Assembly: GCA_964615885.1 (NCBI GenBank)
Contig: CAZTRG010000296.1
Coordinates: 10,313-74,312 of the forward strand
Reading direction: 5' to 3'
From: an uncultured Planctomycetia bacterium
Lineage (GTDB): Bacteria; Planctomycetota; UBA8108
Length of the DNA stretch: 64,000 nucleotides
The notes under the pieces were generated by a model. That model worked only from the letters and a program-made list of their open reading frames with translations, searched no databases and was not told the DNA's origin. Position numbers and translations under genes: made by a program. This document shows, piece by piece, positions 742 to 42,976 of the stretch; positions within the stretch are counted from its first letter, which is position 1, and the number at the start of each line of letters is the position of its first letter.

Positions 742-3033
742 TCAGCCGCGGCCGGAGGACGCTGTCTTCTTCTTGCTGAGGCGCTTCCTGAGCCGCTCGT
801 AACCGCGGCGGCAGACCTGGTTTGTGCGATCAAGCTCCTTGACCACCTTCAGGTATTCCCTGACCGCCAGGACATCCTCACCCATCGATTCGTAGATGAC
901 CCCCATCATTGCCCGCAGATCAGCCTCCAGGAGCCTGGTATCCTTGAGCTCGTTACTGGCCCCTAGAACCTGCAGGCCCTGCCTGAGAGACACCACCGCC
1001 TTCTCGGGTTTTTCCTGCATGCGGTAAACACGGGCATATTTCAGGTAGAGGCGAATGTTCTCTTTTTCGAGTTCCTCACGGATCGTCAGGGCTGCCCGGT
1101 TATGAGCGCGTCTTTCGAAGGGAAGACTGTCAAGCTGGGGAATATCTGTCGCGCCAAGGACCTGGATATTTCCCAGGGTCTCCTCGATCTTCTTCTCTGC
1201 CAGCAGATAATTTTCCAGCGCTGATTGGACCTCGAGTTTGCGCTCCGCCTTGGTGAGCTCATTCCTGCCGGTTGCAATTCCCCAGTGGCTGTCCGCCACC
1301 CCCAGCAAGGCAGGCAGGCTGGATGAATCCAGCACCCGGCTGGTTTCATATTGATCAAGAGCTTCTTTGAAATGGCCCTGGAGACGAAGAACATTTCCAA
1401 GCTCAAAGTGAATCCAGTGAAGATCCTGCTCTGTAGCTTCCGGCAGGGAGCTGTCAATGAACCCCTTGAGAATCTCTGAGGCCTGGAGATAGAGGGAGTC
1501 TTTCTTCTCCTGGTCTTTCTCGACCCGGGCCAGCTCCGAATAGAGCAAGGTGGCGTAGCTTACGTGGGCCTTGAGAAAGCTGGGGTCCTTTCTGCGTGCT
1601 TCCCTCAGGTAGCTGGCTGCCCTGTCATAGCGTTTTTCCGCCCAGAACTGATGCGCCTTGAGCCAGAAAGCCCGGCTCTCCTTACGAGCATCCGTCTCAA
1701 TCTTCCGGTTGTTCAAGACCAGGAGTGACTTTGCCCGCATTTGCTCTGAATTCTCTTTCCACCACTGCTTCCATTTCCCCACAGCCTCCGCCCTCGCGGC
1801 AGGGGTTCCCTCGGCCCTGAAGCCAAAGTTGTTCCGCGTAGAATCCCGCAGGACCCTTGCTGCCAGCGCCCGGATACCTGCCTCCTTCTCTCCCCCCAGC
1901 TCGAGAGCCTCGATAAGAGTAGGGGCCGGGAAAAAGATCCTGTTCCTTACAAGGGCAACGGCAGTAACCATCTTCAGTTCGCCCTTGGATTCGTTATAAA
2001 GATCGAGGAGGGCCTTGTTCTGATTCAGCCGGCGCAGGATCTCAACCGAAAGGGACCGCAGCCGTACATCTTCCTCCGGCCTGCTGATCAGGTACTTTGC
2101 AAGCGGCACGGACTCATCCACGAACTTCGGATAGAGAACCTTCAGGAGCGACTCCTTGACCGCCAGGTTTCCGTAGACCAGCTCCTGGTAGATCTTCGGT
2201 TCAGCAGTTTCCATCTCGAAGGTCACAACCTTCTTGAGGTCATGAACCTGCAGGACTCGGTCAAGAGCCACAAGCGTCTTCGCCCCGGCTGCATCACCAG
2301 CACCTGCTAGCCCGGCCCGGGCTTTCTGAACCTTATCGAGTGCGAAAATGCCGCAGCGAATGAGAAACTTCTCAGCCTGCTCAGCAGCGCCCGGCTCTCC
2401 CTTTGAGAGAATACCGATGGCCTCATCCATCCCAGCGGAAAGTTCGATGGTGTAGTAGTCCGAAGCTGATTCGAGAATCTGGTTTCGATAATAGACGCGC
2501 AGAACCTTGTCACGTCGATAGGTAACCTTCGCTCCATTGGCCAGCTCGATCCGAATCTCTACCCCGGTTTCCTTGATAATCGTACAGGCAACCCTGTGCT
2601 GGTTAACTTTCAGGACCACCAGGTCGGTATCCAGCCTCTGCTGCGAATGCCGGCCTTTGAAGAATTCAATCTTCTCAACCTCAGCCTTCAGGATCCGCTT
2701 TGCGGCACCCCGGTACTCCAGCGAGATGGCATTCCCACCGAGCTCTACCACACTGCCATGCTGCACCGATCCATCTCTCAGATGAACCTTGTCGAGCTTC
2801 TGAAGTGCCTGCAAGCTGGATTTACTTGAAACCGTTTTCTTCGAAGGAGGTGCAGGGGGACCAGTATCCGGCCCGGCTGCCGGAGGTCTTTTACCTTCGA
2901 TTCCACCTGTTGCCTGCTTGCCAGGATCTTCCTGTGAAAATCCTGGTAAAGAAAATGCGCTGAGCGCCAGCACAAGGGGAAAAACGGCTCGCCTGTAAGC
3001 GCCTTGTTTTCCTGCCAATGGTTTAAGCTCCAA
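742..3033 (-). CDS. Secreted TPR-repeat protein (763 aa), function unknown
   Basis: N-terminal signal peptide (RRAVFPLVLALSAFSLPGFSQE). TPR-like helical repeats follow (e.g. FWAEKRYDRAASYLREARRKDPSFLKAHVSYATLLYS, ALDQYETSRVLDSS). Clean ORF bounded by intergenic regions. Confidence 0.5.
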   Translation of the reverse strand: MELKPLAGKQGAYRRAVFPLVLALSAFSLPGFSQEDPGKQATGGIEGKRPPAAGPDTGPPAPPSKKTVSSKSSLQALQKLDKVHLRDGSVQHGSVVELGGNAISLEYRGAAKRILKAEVEKIEFFKGRHSQQRLDTDLVVLKVNQHRVACTIIKETGVEIRIELANGAKVTYRRDKVLRVYYRNQILESASDYYTIELSAGMDEAIGILSKGEPGAAEQAEKFLIRCGIFALDKVQKARAGLAGAGDAAGAKTLVALDRVLQVHDLKKVVTFEMETAEPKIYQELVYGNLAVKESLLKVLYPKFVDESVPLAKYLISRPEEDVRLRSLSVEILRRLNQNKALLDLYNESKGELKMVTAVALVRNRIFFPAPTLIEALELGGEKEAGIRALAARVLRDSTRNNFGFRAEGTPAARAEAVGKWKQWWKENSEQMRAKSLLVLNNRKIETDARKESRAFWLKAHQFWAEKRYDRAASYLREARRKDPSFLKAHVSYATLLYSELARVEKDQEKKDSLYLQASEILKGFIDSSLPEATEQDLHWIHFELGNVLRLQGHFKEALDQYETSRVLDSSSLPALLGVADSHWGIATGRNELTKAERKLEVQSALENYLLAEKKIEETLGNIQVLGATDIPQLDSLPFERRAHNRAALTIREELEKENIRLYLKYARVYRMQEKPEKAVVSLRQGLQVLGASNELKDTRLLEADLRAMMGVIYESMGEDVLAVREYLKVVKELDRTNQVCRRGYERLRKRLSKKKTASSGRG

Positions 3034-34527: not shown

Positions 34528-35658
34528 ATGGCATGGTTCAAAAAATGGAGATCGGGCAAGAAAAAAGATCCCGAGGCTTTACCCGCCGAAGCAGCTGAAG
34601 CTCCCCTGGAGGAAGAAGAGGAGCCGGCCGGGGAAGATTCCGGACTGGAAACCGAGCCAGCCGATCCGCCCCCTCCCGCTCCAGAGCCGCAAAAGCAGGA
34701 AGAACCGGAGAAAAAACCGGAGAAAAAGAAGAGGTCTGCCTGGTCCATCCTGCGCCGGGGACTGGAGAAGACCCGCCAGGGTATTGCGGGGATCTTCAGC
34801 CTGGGCAGGGCCATCGACGAGGAGCTGGTCGATGAAATCCAGGACAGTCTCATCGCCGCTGATTTCGGTCCGGAAACCGTAACCGAGCTGATCGAGGGCG
34901 AAGACGGCCTGCGCAAAGCCTGGAAAGACAAGAAGCTCAAGGAATCAACCGAGGTCCGTGATTTTCTCAAGGACCTGCTGAAGGGCAATCTCAAGAAGAG
35001 AGACAACAGCCTCCTGCAGGCAGCCGAGGCGCCCACTGTTATCCTGGTTTCCGGGGTGAATGGAACCGGCAAGACCACCAGCATCGCAAAGCTTGCCCAC
35101 CGCCTCTCGGCTGAGGGCAAGACTGTAATTCTTGCCGCAGCAGACACCTTCCGGGCAGCTGCGGTTGAGCAGCTGACCATCTGGAGCCAGCGACTCGGCA
35201 TCGAGATTGTAACGGGAGAGGCCGAGTCCGACCCGGCCTCCGTAGCCTACAGGGCTGCTGAACAGGCCGCCGAAACCGGTGCAGATTACCTGATCGTCGA
35301 CACCGCGGGACGCCTCCACACCCAGACCAACCTGATGAAAGAGCTCTCCAAGATCCGCAACGTACTGGAAAAGAAAATCAGCGGCGCGCCCCATGAATCG
35401 CTGCTGGTTCTCGATGCCACAACTGGACAGAATGCCCTCCTGCAGGCCTCGCACTTCCTGGAGGCAGTCCAGGTCAGCGGCATCGTCCTGACCAAGCTCG
35501 ATGGTACCGCCAAGGGAGGGATCGTGGTGGCCATCAACAACCGCCTCCAGATCCCCGTCAAGTTCATCGGGGTTGGAGAGCAGGTTGAAGACCTCGAGGC
35601 CTTCAACCCTGACGGATTCGTCGATGCCCTGCTCGATTCAGCCGAAAGCACCAGCTAA
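34528..35658 (+). CDS. ftsY: Signal-recognition-particle receptor FtsY
   Basis: Acidic N-terminal A domain. NG domain with G1 motif VILVSGVNGTGKTTSIAKLA, LIVDTAGR, TKLDGTAKGG. Confidence 0.85.
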   Translation: MAWFKKWRSGKKKDPEALPAEAAEAPLEEEEEPAGEDSGLETEPADPPPPAPEPQKQEEPEKKPEKKKRSAWSILRRGLEKTRQGIAGIFSLGRAIDEELVDEIQDSLIAADFGPETVTELIEGEDGLRKAWKDKKLKESTEVRDFLKDLLKGNLKKRDNSLLQAAEAPTVILVSGVNGTGKTTSIAKLAHRLSAEGKTVILAAADTFRAAAVEQLTIWSQRLGIEIVTGEAESDPASVAYRAAEQAAETGADYLIVDTAGRLHTQTNLMKELSKIRNVLEKKISGAPHESLLVLDATTGQNALLQASHFLEAVQVSGIVLTKLDGTAKGGIVVAINNRLQIPVKFIGVGEQVEDLEAFNPDGFVDALLDSAESTS

Positions 35659-35674
35659 AAGCTGCTGCTTTCGA

Positions 35675-38600
35675 TCAGAATCCAAACGGCAGGCAACCGG
35701 CCTCGTCCAGGCGGAAAGGCAGGCTCAGGCTCTGGAGTGACTGGCTCTCACCGGTGCCGAACTTCGACTGGAAGTAGACACGGAACCGGACGAAGCGCGT
35801 ACCCTTGAGATTCCTCGGGTCACGCACCAGGCCATTCAGCTCATCAGCCTGGCCATGGACATCAAGGCTCTCGCCGGCGCTTTCCCAGACCACGACAGCC
35901 CTCGTTCCCGGAGGCTGCTGGAAGGTATTGTAAACCACCCTGGCGCCATCAAGCATGAGGCCGTGGGTGGAAGCCGAGAAGCCCGGTCCAACGCCGAGAC
36001 GATGGATTCGAGAGACAGCTACCGATTCGACGATATCCCAGAGGAAGGGGCCCGTTGTAACGCTCGGGTTGACTCCCTGGCTCCTGATTCGCGAGGTCGG
36101 GGAGAACTCGATACGGATCCGGCCATTTGCCGCACCCCCACCCAGGCCGCCAAAGGCGGTCCCGGTAAGAGCCGGCGGAGAAGCCTGGCTGGCACGAATA
36201 TTACCCTCGTAGAGACGAATACCTGAGGAGAAGAAGGGTGGCAACCTGTTGGCCTCTCCAGCGCTGACGTCAGACTGGAAGCCGTTCTCTATCGTGATCG
36301 TGTTCTTGACCTGGAGGAAGATCGTTCCACCGGCCCCGGCCCCACCATTACCGGCAAGGTCAATCGACTGGAAGGCATCACCCCCACGGGCAAGAAGCTT
36401 GGAGGTCGAACGCAGGTAGAGGTCGTTGGCAACGATATTGATAATACCGCCACCACCGCCGCCGCCCGTTCCGGGAGCGTAGAGAGCCTCACCCTTGTAG
36501 GGATAGGTTCCGGAGATACTTCCGTTCTGGTAGGTACGGCTGACATTGGCGCTCGCGCCACCACCGCCTCCACCGAGGCCGCCGACAAGCGCCAGCCCGA
36601 TAATCACGTTGTTGAGGTAGAGGCGCTGGTCCCTGAAGTTGACCAGGTCACCGCCCTGTCCCACCAGAGAATTACGCAGGCCACCACGGCCGGGCAGGAG
36701 AAGGACGTCTCCATTAGAGCCCGCCCTCAGGTTTCCACCACCGCCGCCACCGCCACCGGACTCGAAACAGTCGATTCCACAGGTACGGCCGCCGAGGCTT
36801 GAACCTCCGGTCGACCCGGTGATCGGGGGATTCTGGATTCCAAAGGTGTTGGCCGTCTCGATGATATTGGGCAGCAGCGAGTCACCCGCATCCGAGACCT
36901 GGATATTGTTGGGGTTCACATCAAAGTTCGTGACCATTCCCCCGTCGCCACCGGCGCCACCACCGGCCCCGGGAACACCGCCAAAGCCGAAGGCCGGCAG
37001 GCCGCCACCCTGGGTAAAGCGAAGTGCACCACCGTGGCCACCGGAAGCATCGATGGTCCCGGAAATTTCAGCGTAGTCCCTGACCGAGATCCGAAGAGGA
37101 TTAGGGCCGGTCGCGCGCAGGACAACGTCCTCGTCGATAATAAGCGCGGAGAGATCCATGAAGCCCGGATTGTTATCCGAAGCACGGGTTTCCTTCACGA
37201 TATTGCCGACCGGAGAGCGCAGGGTGCTGGAGGCCGTATCAAAGACCCAGACCGAAAGAGGACGACCGGTCTGCGTGTCGCTGAGCGGAGCTCCTGTATC
37301 GGGGTCGAGACTCTGGATAAAGCGCAGGTGAACCACTCCGTCCCTGCCGCGGCCGAATTCCGGCTCTTCAGGTGCCTCGATAAAGCCGCCGTTCATCAGA
37401 ACGGTCGGATCATCTGCAGGCTGGATAGTACTTGGAGAGATGAATACCGAGGTTCCGCTCGAATGAGAAACCCTGGAACCTTCGATAGCGCGAGTCAGGC
37501 CGGTGAAGGTGTTGGCGGTCTTGCCGCTGTAGGCTATGACCTCATCGTCAATCTTCACCTTACCTGCATTCGGGAATGCCTGGGTCGACTGAACCCGGAT
37601 CGTCTGGTTTCGGTTATTGGAACCGCTGAGCGTAGAGGTCAGCCTGGTAGAGGCCTGGAGGGTCATACAGAAAGGCGTTCCGCCTGTTCCGCTCTCGAGG
37701 CGAATATAACCATCACTGCCTATTCCGCGTCCACCGGTACGATTCTGGCCATTGGAGGGACCGCCGGTACCACCGGCTCCACCCCTGACCTGGAGACTGT
37801 CACAGGTGCTTACGTCAACACTTCCGGTGGCGCGCAGGTGGATAGATCCTCCACTTCCGCCGCCGCCCGCTCCACCGTTGGTCGTTCCTGCCGGGGCCTC
37901 TCCAGGAGGCACCCTTCCGGAACCGCCCCCGCCGCCATTGGCCTGGACCGAACCGATCACAACGACTCCACCGCGTGCGGTCAGCCTCAAGGCTCCACCG
38001 CCGCCGCCACCGCCACCGCCACCGGTAGCGGCAAACTCACCGCCCGTGGTGCGGGAAAGACTGGCCCCTCCACCACCTCCACCCGACCCGGTGGTCAGGG
38101 GGGTGAGCAGGGCATTTCCTCGTATCACACCGCCAGCACCCACGCGAGGTGCGGAGAAATTGGGAATGTTGGGGTTGCCGTAATTACCATCGCCACCGGC
38201 TTCCCTGTGGCCACCACCACCGCCGGGAGCACCGGCAAAGGTAGAGTTCCGGGCCTGGTCAGGATTGATAGCCGCCGGGGTCGTTCCACCAACGCCGCCT
38301 CCATTAGCTCCGGCCATGGCCGGCTCAAGAAGACGTACAGTAGCCCCTGTATTCAACTGCATAAGAGCGCCGTCACCTCCAGCGCCGCCGCCAGCGGTTC
38401 CATCTCCACCTTGTCCACCCACCAGGGAGCCATCCGCTCCATCTCCACCATTGAGATCAAGAGCTCCCATGATGGTAAACACCGGGTCTGTATCAGACGC
38501 CGCGTTTCCACCACCGGAAACCCGCATCACAAGGGGGCGGTCCCCCTGCACGAAGACAGTGGTCTGCGGTGCAATGGTGAAGGTTGCAAAATGAAATTCA

Positions 38601-40330
38601 TCGACGGCCTCACCGGGATTGATAACCCTGTTTCCATCAGGGGTCCCATCATCGGTGAGGATATAAGGTCTTGATTCTTCGGCAATAACCGCCGGCTCGC
38701 CCTCGAGGGCAACATTCCTCAGCAGCACGTGAGAAACATCTACACGGTCAGTATCGATCAGGTAGTACTGGCCGGTGATCGTATCGGGGTCGATGAAATT
38801 ATCTACTGGCTGAATCTCGAGGTAGACCTCGGCCTCACCCTGGCCGAACTGGTAGATATCATTGGTGTTCGTCTCACCCTCCAGGAGGCCGGGGTTGTAA
38901 GGAGCTCCCCAGCTGGCATCGCTCAGATTGAGATTCCGGCCGAAATCGGTATCAAAAGACTCTACGACCTCGCCGGAACGCCAGCCGACCACTTCATCTT
39001 CAGGGCGGTCCTCGACCCAGTAATAGATAAACGAGGGCGCCTCAAAAGCATGCTCACTGAATTCGCGCTCACCGGCATCAGGAATCGGCCTCACCCTGAA
39101 ATGTACCTTCCAGTACCTGGGGGGAGTGACTCCACCTTCGATGGTCTCGTTCAGTTCCCTGAAGAGCGGGTCGCACTGGGCGTCCCACACAAAGGTCCTG
39201 CGAAGCCCGCCTGAAGGAAGGAGCCTCCGGCCGGGATATTTATGCTGAATGGTTCCGCAGGTAATCTCGAATTTTCCTTCGTTATCGGGATCCTCATCGC
39301 GTGGCTTGGCCGGGTTCCATTCAAGGTCCGGCTGGCCGACATCCACGGCCCATTCAAACTCCATGGTATAGGATGCGTCGACCACCAGCTCATAGCAGGT
39401 ATAGTCAACACGTACGGGGCCGGTTGAAACACCACTGGGAACTCTCATCCCATTGACCACCGCACCGATCACCTCGATCAGGTTTTCATTGGCCACGGGA
39501 ATCTCGACCCGGTTCGAGATACCTGCAGTACTCCTGGCAACGATTCCAAGGTTCTCGCGCGGAAGCGCAAAGGGGAAGGAAACATTGTTGTTCCCATTGT
39601 TTCCATCATTGAGAACAAAAGAAAATGACTCATAGCCGGAAGGAGCCTCGCCAGGAACAAAACCTCCCGAGTTGTTGTTGATGAAGGTGCTCGAGGTCAC
39701 GCGGACACTGTTGCCGCTGCCATCATCGATATCGATATAGAGGACATCGGAGAGATTGATTCCGTAAAGGTTAACCCTGCTGTTCTCCTGGAACCGCGAG
39801 AGCAGAGGAGTGTAGACGACGTATTCCTCATCTTCATTTGCACCAAGGGTCACCGCGTAGATCGCCGGACAGGCATCGAAGCCGACAGCGCCGGCTGAAA
39901 CTCCATGGCAGAGCAGCTCGATGTTGCCGGAGGTCACACCGGTGGGAACAATGACTTCCAGGGAAGACTCAACCGTCTCACTGTCGAGATCAACCCTTCG
40001 GTTGACCACGCTCAGCGGCATTCCGAGAATCGCTCCACCGCCGGCGGAGAAGAGCACACGGTGCTCATCGATGTTGTCAGAGAAGTTGAACCCGTTGAGC
40101 TGGATAATCGTTCCAGGGCAAAGCGGATCTTCTGCACTCCCACTGCCAACTCGCTCATAATTGAGCAGGACGCATGCGGTCAGGTCTTGCGGTTGCACCG
40201 GCTCCTGGGGCCCGAAGGGATTCGTGCCACCACCGGTATTCGACTGGTCCCAGGAGAGATCACACCCTCCTACGAAAAGAGAAACCCCCAGAAGGGCCAT
40301 AATGAAGAGGCTATTCCGATTCATGGACAC
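35675..40330 (-). CDS. Giant (1551 aa) glycine-repeat lipoprotein with IPT/TIG-like modules. Possible surface adhesin or beta-helix protein.
   Basis: Lipoprotein signal (LLGVSLFVGGC). IPT-like segment (PGTIIQLNGFNFSD). Long runs of GGxGGxG / GGGGGGG repeats (e.g. GGQGGDGTAGGGAGGDG, TGGGGGGGGGGALR). The plus-strand ORFs across this gene are antisense artefacts. Confidence 0.6.
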   Translation of the reverse strand: MSMNRNSLFIMALLGVSLFVGGCDLSWDQSNTGGGTNPFGPQEPVQPQDLTACVLLNYERVGSGSAEDPLCPGTIIQLNGFNFSDNIDEHRVLFSAGGGAILGMPLSVVNRRVDLDSETVESSLEVIVPTGVTSGNIELLCHGVSAGAVGFDACPAIYAVTLGANEDEEYVVYTPLLSRFQENSRVNLYGINLSDVLYIDIDDGSGNSVRVTSSTFINNNSGGFVPGEAPSGYESFSFVLNDGNNGNNNVSFPFALPRENLGIVARSTAGISNRVEIPVANENLIEVIGAVVNGMRVPSGVSTGPVRVDYTCYELVVDASYTMEFEWAVDVGQPDLEWNPAKPRDEDPDNEGKFEITCGTIQHKYPGRRLLPSGGLRRTFVWDAQCDPLFRELNETIEGGVTPPRYWKVHFRVRPIPDAGEREFSEHAFEAPSFIYYWVEDRPEDEVVGWRSGEVVESFDTDFGRNLNLSDASWGAPYNPGLLEGETNTNDIYQFGQGEAEVYLEIQPVDNFIDPDTITGQYYLIDTDRVDVSHVLLRNVALEGEPAVIAEESRPYILTDDGTPDGNRVINPGEAVDEFHFATFTIAPQTTVFVQGDRPLVMRVSGGGNAASDTDPVFTIMGALDLNGGDGADGSLVGGQGGDGTAGGGAGGDGALMQLNTGATVRLLEPAMAGANGGGVGGTTPAAINPDQARNSTFAGAPGGGGGHREAGGDGNYGNPNIPNFSAPRVGAGGVIRGNALLTPLTTGSGGGGGGASLSRTTGGEFAATGGGGGGGGGGALRLTARGGVVVIGSVQANGGGGGSGRVPPGEAPAGTTNGGAGGGGSGGSIHLRATGSVDVSTCDSLQVRGGAGGTGGPSNGQNRTGGRGIGSDGYIRLESGTGGTPFCMTLQASTRLTSTLSGSNNRNQTIRVQSTQAFPNAGKVKIDDEVIAYSGKTANTFTGLTRAIEGSRVSHSSGTSVFISPSTIQPADDPTVLMNGGFIEAPEEPEFGRGRDGVVHLRFIQSLDPDTGAPLSDTQTGRPLSVWVFDTASSTLRSPVGNIVKETRASDNNPGFMDLSALIIDEDVVLRATGPNPLRISVRDYAEISGTIDASGGHGGALRFTQGGGLPAFGFGGVPGAGGGAGGDGGMVTNFDVNPNNIQVSDAGDSLLPNIIETANTFGIQNPPITGSTGGSSLGGRTCGIDCFESGGGGGGGGNLRAGSNGDVLLLPGRGGLRNSLVGQGGDLVNFRDQRLYLNNVIIGLALVGGLGGGGGGASANVSRTYQNGSISGTYPYKGEALYAPGTGGGGGGGIINIVANDLYLRSTSKLLARGGDAFQSIDLAGNGGAGAGGTIFLQVKNTITIENGFQSDVSAGEANRLPPFFSSGIRLYEGNIRASQASPPALTGTAFGGLGGGAANGRIRIEFSPTSRIRSQGVNPSVTTGPFLWDIVESVAVSRIHRLGVGPGFSASTHGLMLDGARVVYNTFQQPPGTRAVVVWESAGESLDVHGQADELNGLVRDPRNLKGTRFVRFRVYFQSKFGTGESQSLQSLSLPFRLDEAGCLPFGF

Positions 40331-40737
40331 CCCGACTCCTTTTCAGATACTTGCCAGCAGGCGATCTGCTTATTTCTTACGGATTGGTAAAACTTTAACC
40401 CTGTTTTCGCTTCCAGCTCTCTCAACAGTCAAACGCAGATTCCGGCAGAAAATAACCAGGAGAAGCGATTAAAACCGACCGCTCTGTCCTGTCAGCTATT
40501 CTTTGTCTACTCTGCGAATGGAACTATCAAATCCTTCCTGCAAAGAAGCCCGGTCAAAAAGGACTTGCCGGCTCAAAAAGAACCGCCAGGGCCGGGAAAC
40601 AAGCAGGGTGTCAGAGAGGAAATTTTATTCCAGGTAAACTAACCGGCACGAGCTGAAGACCCTTTACCCGAGACTGTTTTTCACAGCCCCGGGAGATCGG
40701 ATAACGTACCGAAAAGACGATGTTAACTCTCCACTGT

Positions 40738-40759
40738 GGGTTTGAAAACCCCCTTTTCC
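40738..40759 (+). terminator. Terminator-like hairpin (GGGTT-tgaa-AACCC) followed by CCTTTTCC in the 940-bp non-coding region. Possible 3' end of a plus-strand sRNA.
   Basis: Read directly from the sequence. No flanking coding gene on the plus strand would use it. Confidence 0.15.
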
Positions 40760-41269
40760 TGATAAAGAAAAGACATTAAAGACGCCTCTGCAGAATTGAA
40801 GGACTGTACTTCCAGGTTTCCGACTTCCACCTCACGGACAAACACGGCCTTAACCCTGCCCCTCTAAAACAGAAACAGGATCCAGGAACACTTCTGCAGA
40901 CAAAAAAACAAAAGGCTGAACTCCTTCAAGCTCGACTTACAAGCTGTCACAACCTTGATTAACGCAATTGTCGTTCCGCGACCTGCGTTTTCTTACTTCT
41001 TCTACTAAACAGTATAACTCAAAGAGTTTATGGGAATCTGGAACCACTTTGACAGCAGCTGAAATGCAAATATCGTCATTAAGTGTGTCCCTTTCGTCCC
41101 ACTCGTCCATAAAATGGACACCGCCTGGCTGAAAAATACGAGGCCTTCATCGATTACCTCCACCCCATATTTCAGGCAGCCGAGTAACAGATGGCTTACA
41201 ATGCAGTAGAGACTTTCCCCAACGGGGCAACCAGCATTCAGCAGCCCCAGGTATCCGGATCCATTCGCG

Positions 41270-42976
41270 ATGTTCCGCAGTTTTAAATACCTGTTCAAAC
41301 GAGAAATTGAGTTCTTCTCCCGCCTGCGCTTTTCGATGAAAAAGAGCGTTCAGCCCGGTAGAAAACCCAGCCGGTCGAAAAGGAAAAACCCTTTCCTCGT
41401 CGCCGGCCCGCCTCCCGTGCAGCGAATCACCTTCAGGAGAAGGTATCCGAGGTTAACCAGCCTGCTGGCCATTGGGATCTCGCTCGTGGTTCATATCGGG
41501 GTAGCGCTGCTGATCTACATCCAGCTCTTTGACAGGCCACCCCCCCATGAGAAAAATGAAATCACCGTCACGATACGGCTGCCCTCAAAAAAACCTCCCG
41601 GCAAGAAGCCCGAGGAGCTGAAGAAGCCCCGGCCGGAAGAGAAAAAGCCGGAGAACCCCGAACCGGTAAAGAAGGTCGTCAAAGAAGTGGTCAAGCCGAA
41701 GCCCCTTCCCCCGAAAACGACTCCACGTGAGGTCAAAAAGAAGCCGGCAGTGGTAAAGTCACCCAGCAGAAAGAAGGCTCCCAGCACCAAGAGCCTCAGG
41801 CAGATCCCGAAGGCTCCTCCCCTGGGACTGGGAGTTTCTCCCCCGGGACTCACCGCTGGAGGGTCCAAGGTCGGCGGGGGAATTCTTGGTTCGCGGGGAC
41901 GCGATGCCAAGCTGGTTGCCCTGCAGCGCTACGGCGGTAACGGACGAACGGAGAATGCTGTCGATAAAGGCCTGGCCTGGCTGGCCGCCCACCAGGATCC
42001 CGATGGTGGCTGGGATGCAAAAGATTACCAGCGCCACTGCCGCCACCATCGCCCCTGCAAAGGCCAGGGCCTGGGCGAATTCGACATGGGAGTGACGGCC
42101 CTTGCAACGCTCGCCTTCCTTGGCTCCGGGCACTCCCCCAACAAGGAGGGGCCCTACCGCCGCCATGTCACCAAGTCCCTGAAGTACATCACCGATGCCC
42201 AGAGCGGCATCGGCAGCTTTGAGCCACGCGGTGACAAGTATAACTACAATCATGCCCTGGCAACCCTGGCGCTGGCGGAAGCCTACGCTATGACCCGTGA
42301 CTCCTTCTACAAGGACAGCCTTCAGAGTGCTCTCAGGTACTCCTTCTCCTCCCAGCAGGCCGGCGGGGGCTGGGATTACAGCAGCATCAAGACCGGGCGC
42401 AACGACCTCTCCATTACCGGCTGGCAGGTCATGGGCCTGCGGGCCGCCCAGAAAGCCGGCATCCCCATACCGGCCCGGGTCCGGCAGAACCTCAGCCACT
42501 TTCTCAACCGGGCCTTCACCCCAAGCGGTTACGGGATCTACGCCAACCTCCCACCGGAGGCCGGGCGCAAGGGCGCCAACATGGTAGCCGTTGCATTGAT
42601 GACCCACCTCTACAACGGCGGACTCAGCTCGGACTCAAGGGCCCGCAGGGCTGTCAGCCGGCTTGTAAAAGACAACCCTCCTGAGGTCAAGGGAATGGCA
42701 CGCTGGGATCTCTCCTACCAGTCCTATTACTACTGGTACACCGCCACCCTGGCTCTCTTCAATGTCGGCGGTAAGACCTGGGAAGCCTGGAACACCCTCC
42801 TGCAACAGAAGGTGCTGCCGCTGCAGGACAGGGAACCCCACAGCTCCGGAAGCTGGGCGCCCGAACCCAACTGGGTGGGCCACTACGGCGGCCGCGTCTA
42901 CTCAACGGCCATCAATGTCCTGACCCTTGAGGTTTACTACCGCTACCGGCCGGTCTTTACTGTACGTAAATCATAG
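41270..42976 (+). CDS. Membrane-anchored protein: N-terminal TM, Pro/Lys-rich TonB-like linker, then a C-terminal squalene-cyclase-like repeat domain
   Basis: TM LTSLLAIGISLVVHIGVALLIYI. Linker KKPEELKKPRPEEKKPENPEPVKKVVKEVVKPKPLPPK. Repeat signatures AVDKGLAWLAAHQDPDGGWD, SQQAGGGWDY, HSSGSW. The start may be the internal Met (MKKSVQ). Confidence 0.6.
   Translation: MFRSFKYLFKREIEFFSRLRFSMKKSVQPGRKPSRSKRKNPFLVAGPPPVQRITFRRRYPRLTSLLAIGISLVVHIGVALLIYIQLFDRPPPHEKNEITVTIRLPSKKPPGKKPEELKKPRPEEKKPENPEPVKKVVKEVVKPKPLPPKTTPREVKKKPAVVKSPSRKKAPSTKSLRQIPKAPPLGLGVSPPGLTAGGSKVGGGILGSRGRDAKLVALQRYGGNGRTENAVDKGLAWLAAHQDPDGGWDAKDYQRHCRHHRPCKGQGLGEFDMGVTALATLAFLGSGHSPNKEGPYRRHVTKSLKYITDAQSGIGSFEPRGDKYNYNHALATLALAEAYAMTRDSFYKDSLQSALRYSFSSQQAGGGWDYSSIKTGRNDLSITGWQVMGLRAAQKAGIPIPARVRQNLSHFLNRAFTPSGYGIYANLPPEAGRKGANMVAVALMTHLYNGGLSSDSRARRAVSRLVKDNPPEVKGMARWDLSYQSYYYWYTATLALFNVGGKTWEAWNTLLQQKVLPLQDREPHSSGSWAPEPNWVGHYGGRVYSTAINVLTLEVYYRYRPVFTVRKS

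Follow-up and report, generated by a model that had tools for sequence, protein, structure and literature searches.

A predicted lipoprotein of uncultured marine Planctomycetota carrying two apparent copies of a glycine-rich domain

Folds in which glycine is obligatory, such as polyglycine-II (PGII) bundles and sandwiches, are uncommon and are represented by no more than a handful of known structures. PGII helices have been described in the gp38 tip protein of phage S16 and the T-even phages, the snow-flea antifreeze protein, the N-terminal domain of Obg and the beta subunit of acetophenone carboxylase (PMC8409303). In these bundles and sandwiches only glycine is accepted at inward-facing positions, and phage gp38 has central helices made of 6-7 consecutive glycines (PMC8409303, PMC9436101). 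PGII folds are overlooked by standard secondary-structure classifiers (PMC8409303). A PGII sandwich has also been predicted for the PGRS domain of the mycobacterial PE_PGRS proteins (PMC9436101, PMC10216338).

Here we examined a glycine-rich protein encoded on the minus strand of the window, by which we mean the whole 64,000-nt stretch of DNA that was analysed. The 1551-aa ORF begins with GTG in the ORF list and occupies 7.3% of the window, in agreement with the share of about 7% given previously. Direct reading of the sequence places an in-frame ATG 2 codons downstream of the GTG, and the Shine-Dalgarno-like motif ahead of the start (Table 1) is conserved, as AAGGAGT, in L002 and L003. The 24 full-length orthologues, at 36-93% identity, have lengths of 1540 ± 40 aa and lie in conserved synteny, which holds down to 38% identity. 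The gene is single-copy, and its conserved neighbours are housekeeping genes (guaBA-ribH-nusB-ftsY, also YjeF_N). Instead of the internal stops expected of a decayed gene, relatives carry intact orthologues, with a frameshift noted in L007. The ORF is therefore a real conserved gene, and it belongs to a marine Planctomycetota lineage for which no cultured member is known. A search of positions 35000-41500 against Rfam revealed no RNA family inside or around the gene. Conservation of the 939-nt upstream spacer is limited to close relatives, and it yielded no regulatory element.

Table 1. Features of the gene and of the opposite strand, in window positions (aa, residues of the protein; AF2, AlphaFold2).
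Feature	Position	Strand	Residues	Basis or remark
Shine-Dalgarno-like AAGGAG	40336..40341	-		5 nt upstream of GTG start; sequence read directly
Complete CDS	35675..40330	-	1551 aa + stop	ORF list, orthologues, synteny
Predicted signal peptide and lipobox	40262..40330	-	1-23	...LFVGG-C23, +2 = Asp; PS51257-style rule
Two predicted N-terminal beta-sandwich (Ig-like) domains	39461..40198	-	~45-290	AF2, Foldseek, sub-threshold TIG in P0049
Family-specific beta-rich region leading into module A	38579..39460	-	~291-584	Invariant columns A1/A2, AF2
Gly-rich module A	37646..38578	-	585-895	hhalign, local HMM iE 7e-67, 76-instance consensus
Phage baseplate-wedge/tail-fibre-type domain	37388..37660	-	~891-981	PHROG, tblastn, Foldseek, AF2
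Connector into module B, beta-rich	37169..37387	-	~982-1054	AF2 pLDDT 67-89
Gly-rich module B	36071..37168	-	1055-1420	hhalign vs A, local HMM iE 2.6e-42
C-terminal ~130-aa beta domain	35678..36070	-	1421-1551	Conserved in A1/A3
(CCACCG)x5 hexamer tract	37995-38024
Antisense ORFs 36639-37076, 37034-38674, 37752-38183, 38265-38594	within 36639..38674	+		By-products of GGN codons, not genes

Glycine makes up 17.2% of the protein and is concentrated in one block at aa ~600-900 and a second at ~1075-1400, where it reaches 30-44% in 50-aa windows; composition is ordinary in the first ~600 aa, in the ~160-aa middle insert and in the last ~130 aa. The three glycine strings quoted in the earlier note are present at aa 638, 770 and 1250, but its description of the protein as dominated by polyglycine is too strong, and its "repeat arrays" appear to be something else. 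We conclude from profile comparisons that the two blocks are probably paralogous copies of one ~300-aa domain, an internal duplication that had been missed. Modules A and B align with hhalign over 280 collinear columns (99%, E 5e-18), a score that glycine composition may partly inflate, and B carries an extra ~50-aa insertion relative to A. The module is recognised by four near-invariant poly-Gly runs of 5, 8, 9 and 7 residues, between which lie short beta-strand motifs (PLviR, ALRLxA...IxAxGG, GGGGSGGxIxL and GRIRxE), and the order of motifs is kept over ~290 columns in 76 instances. The runs are fixed in position and length both in the orthologues, where G5, G6 and G7 are of the same length in 20-22 of 24, and across phyla.

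On the plus strand, stop codons are depleted in two of the three frames over the glycine blocks. Long antisense ORFs had been dismissed as spurious, Pro/Ala-rich products of the GGN codon bias. This is mostly right: three of the four, of 109-145 aa, lie inside the blocks and contain 25-35% proline, but the longest (546 aa) has 4% and is not Pro-rich.

The Gly module was found in more than 100 retrieved proteins from at least three phyla, among them the very large Ig-like proteins on the surface of Desulfopila and Myxococcota, a spread that had also gone unrecognised. It measures ~250-360 aa, and the lipoproteins and giant extracellular Ig-like proteins that contain it have between one and five copies. 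Its company in other module-bearing proteins (Big_5, TSP3_bac, Laminin_G_3, Kelch and dockerin domains) points to an extracellular setting. Recovery depended strongly on method: a word-indexed search returned ~10 homologues, poly-G words saturating the candidate list, and an exhaustive HMM search gave more than 2000 matches. Pfam and NCBIfam matched nothing on the whole protein, on seven segments or on 13 diverse module instances. PHROG and PDB searches likewise gave no match to the module, a PDB sequence search with three profiles returning only artificial Gly/Ser linkers and Obg at a non-significant E of 0.58. No segment matched an enzyme family in Pfam, NCBIfam or PHROG; the repeats do not align to a known enzyme, and this supports the earlier view that the glycine-rich parts are structural. 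The module thus appears to be a discrete domain that lacks an entry in Pfam, NCBIfam, PHROGs and the PDB. The C-terminal domain, which has a local HMM match in 46 of 100 retrieved proteins of at least 800 aa, is common to many two-module and some one-module relatives; it has no Pfam or PHROG match, and AlphaFold2 confidence in it is low.

The N-terminus, MSMNRNSLFIMALLGVSLFVGGC, satisfies a PROSITE PS51257-type lipobox rule with Cys23 as the lipobox cysteine. This rule, in the form applied, requires an N-terminal basic residue, a hydrophobic core and a lipobox [LIVMFWSTAG]2-[LIVMFYSTAGCQ]-[AGS]-C whose cysteine falls within the first ~15-35 residues; here the lipobox is MSMNRNSLFIMALLGVSLFVGG-C23. 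The strict rule is satisfied by 25 of 36 family members and most of the others keep ...GC[DN], so that the lipobox noted previously is borne out. In E. coli an Asp at +2, as found here, specifies retention in the inner membrane, a rule that may not be that of the Planctomycetota. Given this residue, the cell-surface location suggested for the protein is uncertain.

IPT/TIG modules had also been proposed. We found no IPT/TIG match in Pfam or NCBIfam, either with the whole protein (E<=1) or with isolated segments (E<=10), and the gathering score of PF01833 was not reached; among isolated segments a Big_9 match (E 0.14) was sub-threshold. The homologous domain of a distant relative, P0049, matched TIG at E 0.0034, with 17.8 bits against a cutoff of 20.9. 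An AlphaFold2 model of aa 24-610, built from 7-8 input sequences, is all-beta with a pLDDT of 58, and Foldseek matched it to tandem Ig/FnIII arrays with TM scores of only 0.12-0.18. The N-terminal domains are predicted beta-sandwiches and contain a motif resembling TIG ('CPGTIIQLNGFNF...LEVIVPTGVTSGNIEL'), but confidence in the model is too low to separate TIG from other Ig-like folds. What stands of the proposal is a generic Ig-like/FnIII fold, predicted at low confidence, in which the first domain (aa ~63-128) is possibly IPT/TIG-like. The beta-rich region that follows had no family match in a segment search. It contains an invariant FVWDA motif (A1/A2), homology to P0049 recorded for it spans 477 columns, and aa ~505-605 are modelled with a pLDDT of 79-87.

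How the Gly module folds can be approached by comparison with the PGII proteins. Likenesses are the conserved runs of 5-9 glycines (6 and 7 in the central helices of gp38), a glycine periodicity of three residues, the intolerance of the glycines to substitution, and the co-occurrence with a domain of phage-fibre type. The differences are that there is no detectable sequence homology, that our module, at ~300 aa, is the larger and has Gly runs alternating with conserved beta-strand motifs, and that it resides in cellular lipoproteins and giant surface proteins rather than in phages. Glycine positions recur at lag 3 with an observed/expected ratio of 1.58 (z 29), a signal that the GGxGG motif itself or glycine composition may partly inflate; with the runs masked, lag 3 stands at 1.55 and lag 2 at 1.07. 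The invariant runs and this periodicity (lag-3 z = 29) are the obligatory glycine and triplet spacing by which the PGII class is recognised. Since the runs are of fixed length, under strong purifying selection and periodic in three residues, they would be load-bearing in a compact fold where only glycine fits. The most likely arrangement would be a PGII/beta-solenoid hybrid in which the helices pack against, or stack along, short beta hairpins. Overall, we consider a conserved envelope lipoprotein with the duplicated glycine domain as its load-bearing fold to be a reasonably probable explanation. The stronger proposal, that the module represents an undescribed extracellular domain family spread across phyla, in which PGII helices and beta hairpins form a new polyglycine-II-based fold, and that it is duplicated here around a captured phage domain in a core envelope lipoprotein, is put forward tentatively.

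It could be argued that the modules are classical right-handed parallel beta-helices in which glycine occupies the turns only and there is no PGII packing. The units, [Gly run]-xIxLxA-xG-xIxI-G-xIxA-xGGxGG, do resemble solenoid rungs, and AlphaFold2 places short strands between the Gly runs (pLDDT 60-78). Beta_helix_2 was found sub-threshold nearby in one module-bearing giant protein, and a tailspike depolymerase appeared as a weak fold match (E 0.1). Beta-helix adhesins, tailspikes and autotransporters share with our protein the [turn]-strand-turn-strand pattern of the module's C-terminal half and a multidomain, Ig-like, extracellular setting. However, turns need one or two glycines and not uninterrupted, invariant runs of 5-9, the periodicity is 3 rather than 2, and the N-terminal half of the module is nearly without strand-like segments. 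No beta-helix, PbH1 or PATR family was matched at E<=10 by the 13 diverse instances, nor did the autotransporter HMMs match; the protein has no translocator barrel, and its C-terminal domain is only ~130 aa long. On balance we think such a beta-helix rather unlikely.

A lower probability still, that of an improbable alternative, attaches to the view that intrinsic disorder prevails in the glycine blocks, which would serve as low-complexity spacers or elastic linkers joining folded domains. Their composition is extreme, and the AlphaFold2 model of aa 585-1551 has a pLDDT of 44.6 overall, falling to ~20-25 in the Gly runs. That model, however, rested on only 7 input sequences, and PGII folds escape the standard classifiers (PMC8409303). 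Disordered linkers soon diverge in both length and sequence, whereas these runs stay in place and at the same length even down at 36-40% identity and between phyla, and the motif order is preserved through ~290 columns of the 76 instances. Under the load-bearing reading the Gly runs would be neither flexible linkers nor slippage-prone repeats.

The domain between the modules, of ~90 aa, had gone unnoticed. It matches PHROG 2885 (baseplate wedge subunit, E 1.8e-11), PHROG 4406 (virion structural, 2.3e-10) and the tail fibre PHROGs 708 and 11439, with E values from 1.8e-11 to 9e-4. TBLASTN identified it, at 35-44% identity, in 117 cyanophage records, in their T4-like gp7 ('baseplate wedge initiator'). 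Foldseek matched its model (pLDDT 70-89) to BFVD entries with an rmsd of 1.3-3 Å over ~75 aa, and to 8jov_1 in the PDB; we assign it to the small domains of phage baseplate-wedge/tail-fibre type. Other large proteins carry it in tandem, with as many as 11 copies in an array. Since 37 two-module relatives lack it, it is an insertion; in P0006 the connector is kept and the phage-type domain is absent.

The middle domain is genuinely of phage type and phage gp38 adhesins use polyglycine folds (PMC8409303), and this raises the question of whether the whole gene is phage-derived, as part of a prophage or a tailocin tail fibre or baseplate, rather than encoding a cellular envelope protein. We regard this as highly improbable. 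What is shared with the cyanophage gp7 and the four PHROGs is one ~60-90-aa domain, while the remainder of the protein is cellular, as is its genomic setting. The housekeeping neighbourhood is syntenic across the lineage and free of phage genes, the lipoprotein signal is conserved, and the relatives without the phage-type domain still have both modules. The Gly modules, N-terminus and C-terminus had no PHROG, phage TBLASTN or viral-contig match. Two of these searches were weak: TBLASTN of module A against phages found nothing with the low-complexity filter applied, and the scan of viral contigs with the module profile, a generic poly-G pattern, found none among the matches listed (<=600 stretches).

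Very little probability also remains for a PGRS-like or adhesin repeat protein whose glycine repeats grow and shrink through slippage or recombination, giving length or antigenic variation; the earlier note had suggested a PGRS-like architecture and a likely hotspot of this kind. PE_PGRS proteins, from the Mycobacterium tuberculosis complex and relatives, begin with a PE domain, after which come polymorphic GGA/GGN repeats. They resemble our protein in their glycine-rich GGX-type triplets, in a proposed cell-envelope location and in glycine that is probably structural rather than disordered. They lack, however, the homopolymeric Gly runs and interspersed beta motifs found here, whereas our protein has no PE domain, comes from a planctomycetal and not a mycobacterial host, and carries a module that is fixed in length and order rather than polymorphic; membership of the family therefore fails. 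GGxGG-type strings are present, and many copies in the databases are incomplete, the contigs breaking off within the gene. The frameshift of L007 falls inside the glycine block of module B, but its contig is labelled 8x, so that an assembly indel is plausible. Tandem Repeats Finder (TRF) and repeat scans revealed no DNA tandem array beyond the 30-nt (CCACCG)x5 tract. The hotspot idea is refuted because the runs are conserved in length and position, the glycine codons within them are mixed and tandem arrays are absent. Orthologue lengths are uniform over the whole range of identity, and between species the slippage view is already contradicted.

RTX-type calcium-binding beta-rolls (GGxGxDxUx nonapeptides) are scarcely credible: the strings GGQGGD and GGAGGD are present at aa 638-654 and some giant proteins combine the module with calcium-binding repeats of TSP3 type, but HemolysinCabind (PF00353) was not matched at E<=10 by the protein or by 13 module instances, the tandem nonapeptide register is absent, Asp stays below the 50% level throughout the 76-instance consensus, and the conserved parts are homopolymeric Gly runs, not GGxGxD. 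A collagen-like triple helix was rejected on direct reading of the sequence, which has no long uninterrupted G-X-Y register and whose blocks are not Pro-rich.

Returning to the conserved envelope lipoprotein, the earlier picture of a secreted, lipid-anchored, all-beta multidomain envelope protein is supported in outline. From the N-terminus the protein comprises the lipobox, a predicted all-beta Ig-like stalk of ~560 aa, module A, the phage-type domain with its ~70-aa connector, module B and the C-terminal domain. The lipid anchor would hold it on a membrane, and the two rigid Gly modules, together with the phage-fibre-type and C-terminal domains, would project into the periplasm or from the cell surface, where the protein may serve a structural or ligand-binding (adhesin-like) purpose. 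Its most likely role is that of a structural or binding protein held in the envelope by a lipid anchor.

With near-invariant runs and no Pfam or PDB entry, the module could serve to define a new family of domains, perhaps with a new fold. If the PGII-based proposal were true, the module would correspond, in cells, to the polyglycine tips with which phage fibres bind their receptors. The locus also bears on annotation practice, in that a long poly-Gly tract need be neither unstable nor disordered, that Pro-rich antisense ORFs opposite them are artefacts, and that poly-G words swamp word-indexed searches. For the biology of the Planctomycetota, it adds a large conserved protein, predicted to be an envelope lipoprotein, in an abundant uncultured marine lineage.

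The 1551-aa protein studied here is secreted, multidomain and all-beta, with a conserved lipobox, and carries two copies of a glycine-obligate domain (modules A, aa 585-895, and B, aa 1055-1420) together with a phage-fibre-type domain. Its gene is real and conserved; it starts with GTG, with AAGGAG ending 5 nt before and an in-frame ATG two codons on. What the earlier note observed is confirmed in part, and its interpretation is supported in part. The lipobox signal claimed there was recovered, Cys23 in MSMNRNSLFIMALLGVSLFVGGC satisfying a PS51257-type rule, and the three peptide strings quoted there lie at aa 638, 770 and 1250. The description "dominated by polyglycine" applies to two Gly-dense blocks (aa ~600-900 and ~1075-1400, 30-44% Gly per 50-aa window) but is overstated for the protein as a whole (17.2% Gly), because glycine is confined to these blocks and the first ~600 aa, the middle insert and the C-terminus are of ordinary composition. 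The named genomes with homologues are the marine Planctomycetota MAGs ALOHA_A2.5_93 and EAC72, and all public copies are annotated "hypothetical protein [Planctomycetota bacterium]".

In a 10-sequence alignment, the columns of the Gly runs stay invariant down to 39% identity. Of 24 full-length orthologues, 22 share the length of the G5 run at aa 703, and 20 each that of the G6 run at aa 750 and of the G7 run at aa 1289; a G10 run is interrupted by A or S substitutions and is gap-free in the 10-sequence alignment. These fixed lengths, the mixed GGT/GGC/GGA/GGG codons that encode the runs, and DNA-level scans in which a 30-nt (CCACCG)x5 was the only tandem array contradict the prediction of a hotspot of repeat-mediated length variation, and the comparison of orthologue lengths proposed as a check (1540 ± 40 aa over the 24) also speaks against it. 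As to gene decay, one relative's locus (L007, 6001-10729 of a 1.86-Mb contig) has the orthologue broken by a frameshift into two intact ORFs, 1215 and 359 aa long, at query aa ~1113-1140, the Gly-rich start of module B. Since the contig name is labelled "8x", which we read as low coverage, an assembly indel seems likelier than a pseudogene; against decay, full-length homologues, near and far, are intact at 36-93% identity. Many public copies are partial because contigs end within the gene, which seems to be a frequent metagenome assembly breakpoint: it is cut at aa 1326 in contig JAKUSY010000141.1 (L001), and most NCBI members of the cluster of the homologue P0004 are marked "partial".

Profile-profile comparison of aa 585-885 with aa 1064-1414 (99% probability, E 5e-18, 280 collinear columns, a score that Gly composition may inflate) identifies the two blocks as paralogous copies of one module. 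In word-indexed searches poly-G words crowded the candidate list, so that only ~10 relatives were found. An exhaustive HMM search returned 2264 proteins at E<=1e-3 (95 at E<=1e-30), and local HMM searches located the module in 122 of 159 retrieved proteins. When we tallied the architectures of the 100 retrieved proteins of at least 800 aa, 22 (the orthologue group) had the middle phage-type domain along with two modules, 37 had two modules without it, 13 one module, 4 three or more, and 24 no Gly module and phage-type domain arrays only. Five modules, three of them ~455 aa apart, span aa 3963-7408 of a 7437-aa "Ig-like domain-containing protein" (P0094, WP_304511247.1) of Desulfopila sp. IMCC35008, which, as a named strain with a complete genome, makes the module amenable to structural study; another multi-module protein, of 4063 aa, is from Myxococcota. 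The partner domains in multi-module proteins (Big_5, Big_7, TSP3_bac, Laminin_G_3 and Kelch), and the dockerin of one single-module relative, are extracellular company. A consensus of 76 instances at <55% pairwise identity is nearly all glycine with a few strand motifs (G..PLviR.sG; i.G.id..G..G; G.GG.gg.GGG.GG.Gg; ggpGGGGG; G.GG..rG; l.gGsGGGGGGa; GgGGGGGGGa....a.G.....g.i.a.GG.gg.g; g.GGGGsGG.I.l.atG; gG.G..GrIR.E). Of 13 diverse instances none matched Pfam at E<=10, their profile matched only artificial linkers among solved structures, and PHROGs gave no match to the module; it is therefore an uncurated domain family.

AlphaFold2, with an input of only seven sequences, gave pLDDT ~20-25 across the Gly runs and 60-78 for the short strands between them (ALRLTAR/VVVI/SVQ, SIHLRA/VDV, IINIVA, TIFLQV). 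Known polyglycine-II (PGII) bundles and sandwiches tolerate only Gly at inward-facing positions, and phage gp38 has central helices made of 6 and 7 consecutive Gly (PMC8409303, PMC9436101). The module resembles PGII proteins in its consecutive Gly of fixed length and in a three-residue Gly periodicity that persists when runs of at least four Gly are masked (lag 3 = 1.55 vs lag 2 = 1.07). From these features and the PGII precedent we infer a fold that probably combines PGII with beta hairpins, or else a solenoid whose Gly faces stack. That it is instead a classical beta-helix is a serious rival, if an unlikely one. Disorder is a minor rival and quite improbable, since run length is fixed among orthologues at ~36-40% identity and in most instances from other phyla, and since the periodicity (lag 3 obs/exp 1.58) lies at z = 29 against block shuffles; these sequence facts favour a compact structure in which Gly is obligatory.

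Between the modules, the phage-type domain matched PHROG 2885 (baseplate wedge subunit, E 1.8e-11), 4406 (virion structural protein, E 2.3e-10), and 708 and 11439 (tail fibre). Its tblastn matches, at 35-44% identity, were to 117 cyanophage records within the T4-like gp7 "baseplate wedge initiator"; Foldseek against BFVD gave 19 matches at E<=1e-3 (rmsd 1.3-3 Å over ~75 residues), and the PDB match was chain 8jov_1 of a phage portal-tail complex. The homologue P0006 and all ~1320-1360-aa two-module relatives are without the domain, which elsewhere occurs in arrays of up to 11 copies; it is a mobile domain, and in this lineage it has been inserted between modules A and B. Five giant proteins of 3.8-5.8 kaa without a Gly module (P0053, P0126, P0120, P0133, P0097) have 8-11 tandem copies of the ~70-aa domain, and smaller carriers combine it with a Prophage_tail (P0143) or G8 domain (P0159).

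The IPT/TIG modules of the earlier note are unconfirmed by the defining HMM, because neither Pfam nor NCBIfam matched the whole protein at E<=1 and Pfam at E<=10 matched seven isolated segments only with Big_9 (E 0.14). The N-terminal model is all-beta (pLDDT 58) and matched tandem Ig-like/FnIII arrays only generically (TM 0.12-0.18). In a distant relative whose N-terminus is homologous (hhalign 99.7%), TIG matched below threshold at the equivalent of aa ~63-128; an IPT-like fold is plausible for the first domain. The C-terminal ~130-aa domain is common to many relatives and matched no family. No segment gave an enzyme signature, the kind of match that the earlier note named as refuting its structural reading.

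Features of the stretch and of the encoded protein
Feature	Position	Strand	Remarks
Gly-module gene ORF	35675..40330	minus	1551 codons (ORF list)
Phage virion-type domain	aa ~891-981		PHROG, tblastn, Foldseek, PDB
Divergent intergenic spacer	40331-41269		939 nt, unusually long, lower GC
Divergent neighbour, 568 aa	41270-42976	plus	SQHop_cyclase_C-like alpha/alpha-toroid repeat region, E 6e-8
E/K/Q/A-rich coiled-coil-like ORF, ~1030 aa	13545-16700	minus
Large ORF, 1244 aa	49377-53111	minus	in a stretch of strongly negative GC skew (-0.19 at 50-52 kb)

Synteny is kept down to ~38% identity, with a divergent SQHop_cyclase_C-like gene (~530-614 aa, spacer 0.7-0.9 kb in relatives) on one flank and, on the other, a convergent ftsY followed by nusB, ribH, guaA and guaB. 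The gene is a core gene in single copy, set among housekeeping genes, and an island or prophage location was rejected; the only two Gly-module copies in the window are its own. The pairing with the SQHop_cyclase_C-like neighbour is kept throughout the orthologue group, and a functional link is possible. The neighbour has an N-terminal hydrophobic segment and a Lys/Pro-rich spacer besides its repeat region. Upstream spacers of 0.7-0.9 kb are present in all relatives; several near-identical blocks shared with the locus L002 (78% identity), e.g. TTCCCATAAACTC.TTG.GTTATACTG.TTAGTAGAAGA and GAAAAGGGGGTTTTCAAACCCA.AGT.GAGAGTTAACATCG, are not conserved in distant relatives, and Rfam did not match the window's spacer. 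An inserted 483-aa CotH-domain gene separates the Gly-module gene from ftsY at the P0005 loci (L003/L004, 14827-16278, 50% identity) and is missing from the window and other relatives. The earlier note is right that the antisense ORFs arise as a side effect of GGN codons: three plus-strand ORFs within the Gly blocks are 25-35% Pro and plus-strand stops are depleted there in two frames. The longest antisense ORF, of 546 aa at 37034-38674, is not Pro-rich. Elsewhere, the strong anomaly in composition at 14-16 kb (AT skew -0.35, GC skew -0.20) is explained by the coiled-coil-like ORF, whose N-terminus looks like a signal peptide and which contains a Q15 run (QQQQQQQQQQQQQQQLQQQ).

By the E. coli rule, Asp at +2 leads one to expect the inner membrane, and Planctomycetota may differ. 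The lipid tether would hold the protein to a membrane, from which a rigid domain array may project and act as a structural or binding element of the envelope. Glycine-dependent structural domains of surface or envelope proteins are a known kind, of which the module is a variant; the interest of this gene lies in a glycine-obligate domain that is duplicated here, occurs across phyla and is absent from the domain catalogues, and in a phage-type domain that it has captured.
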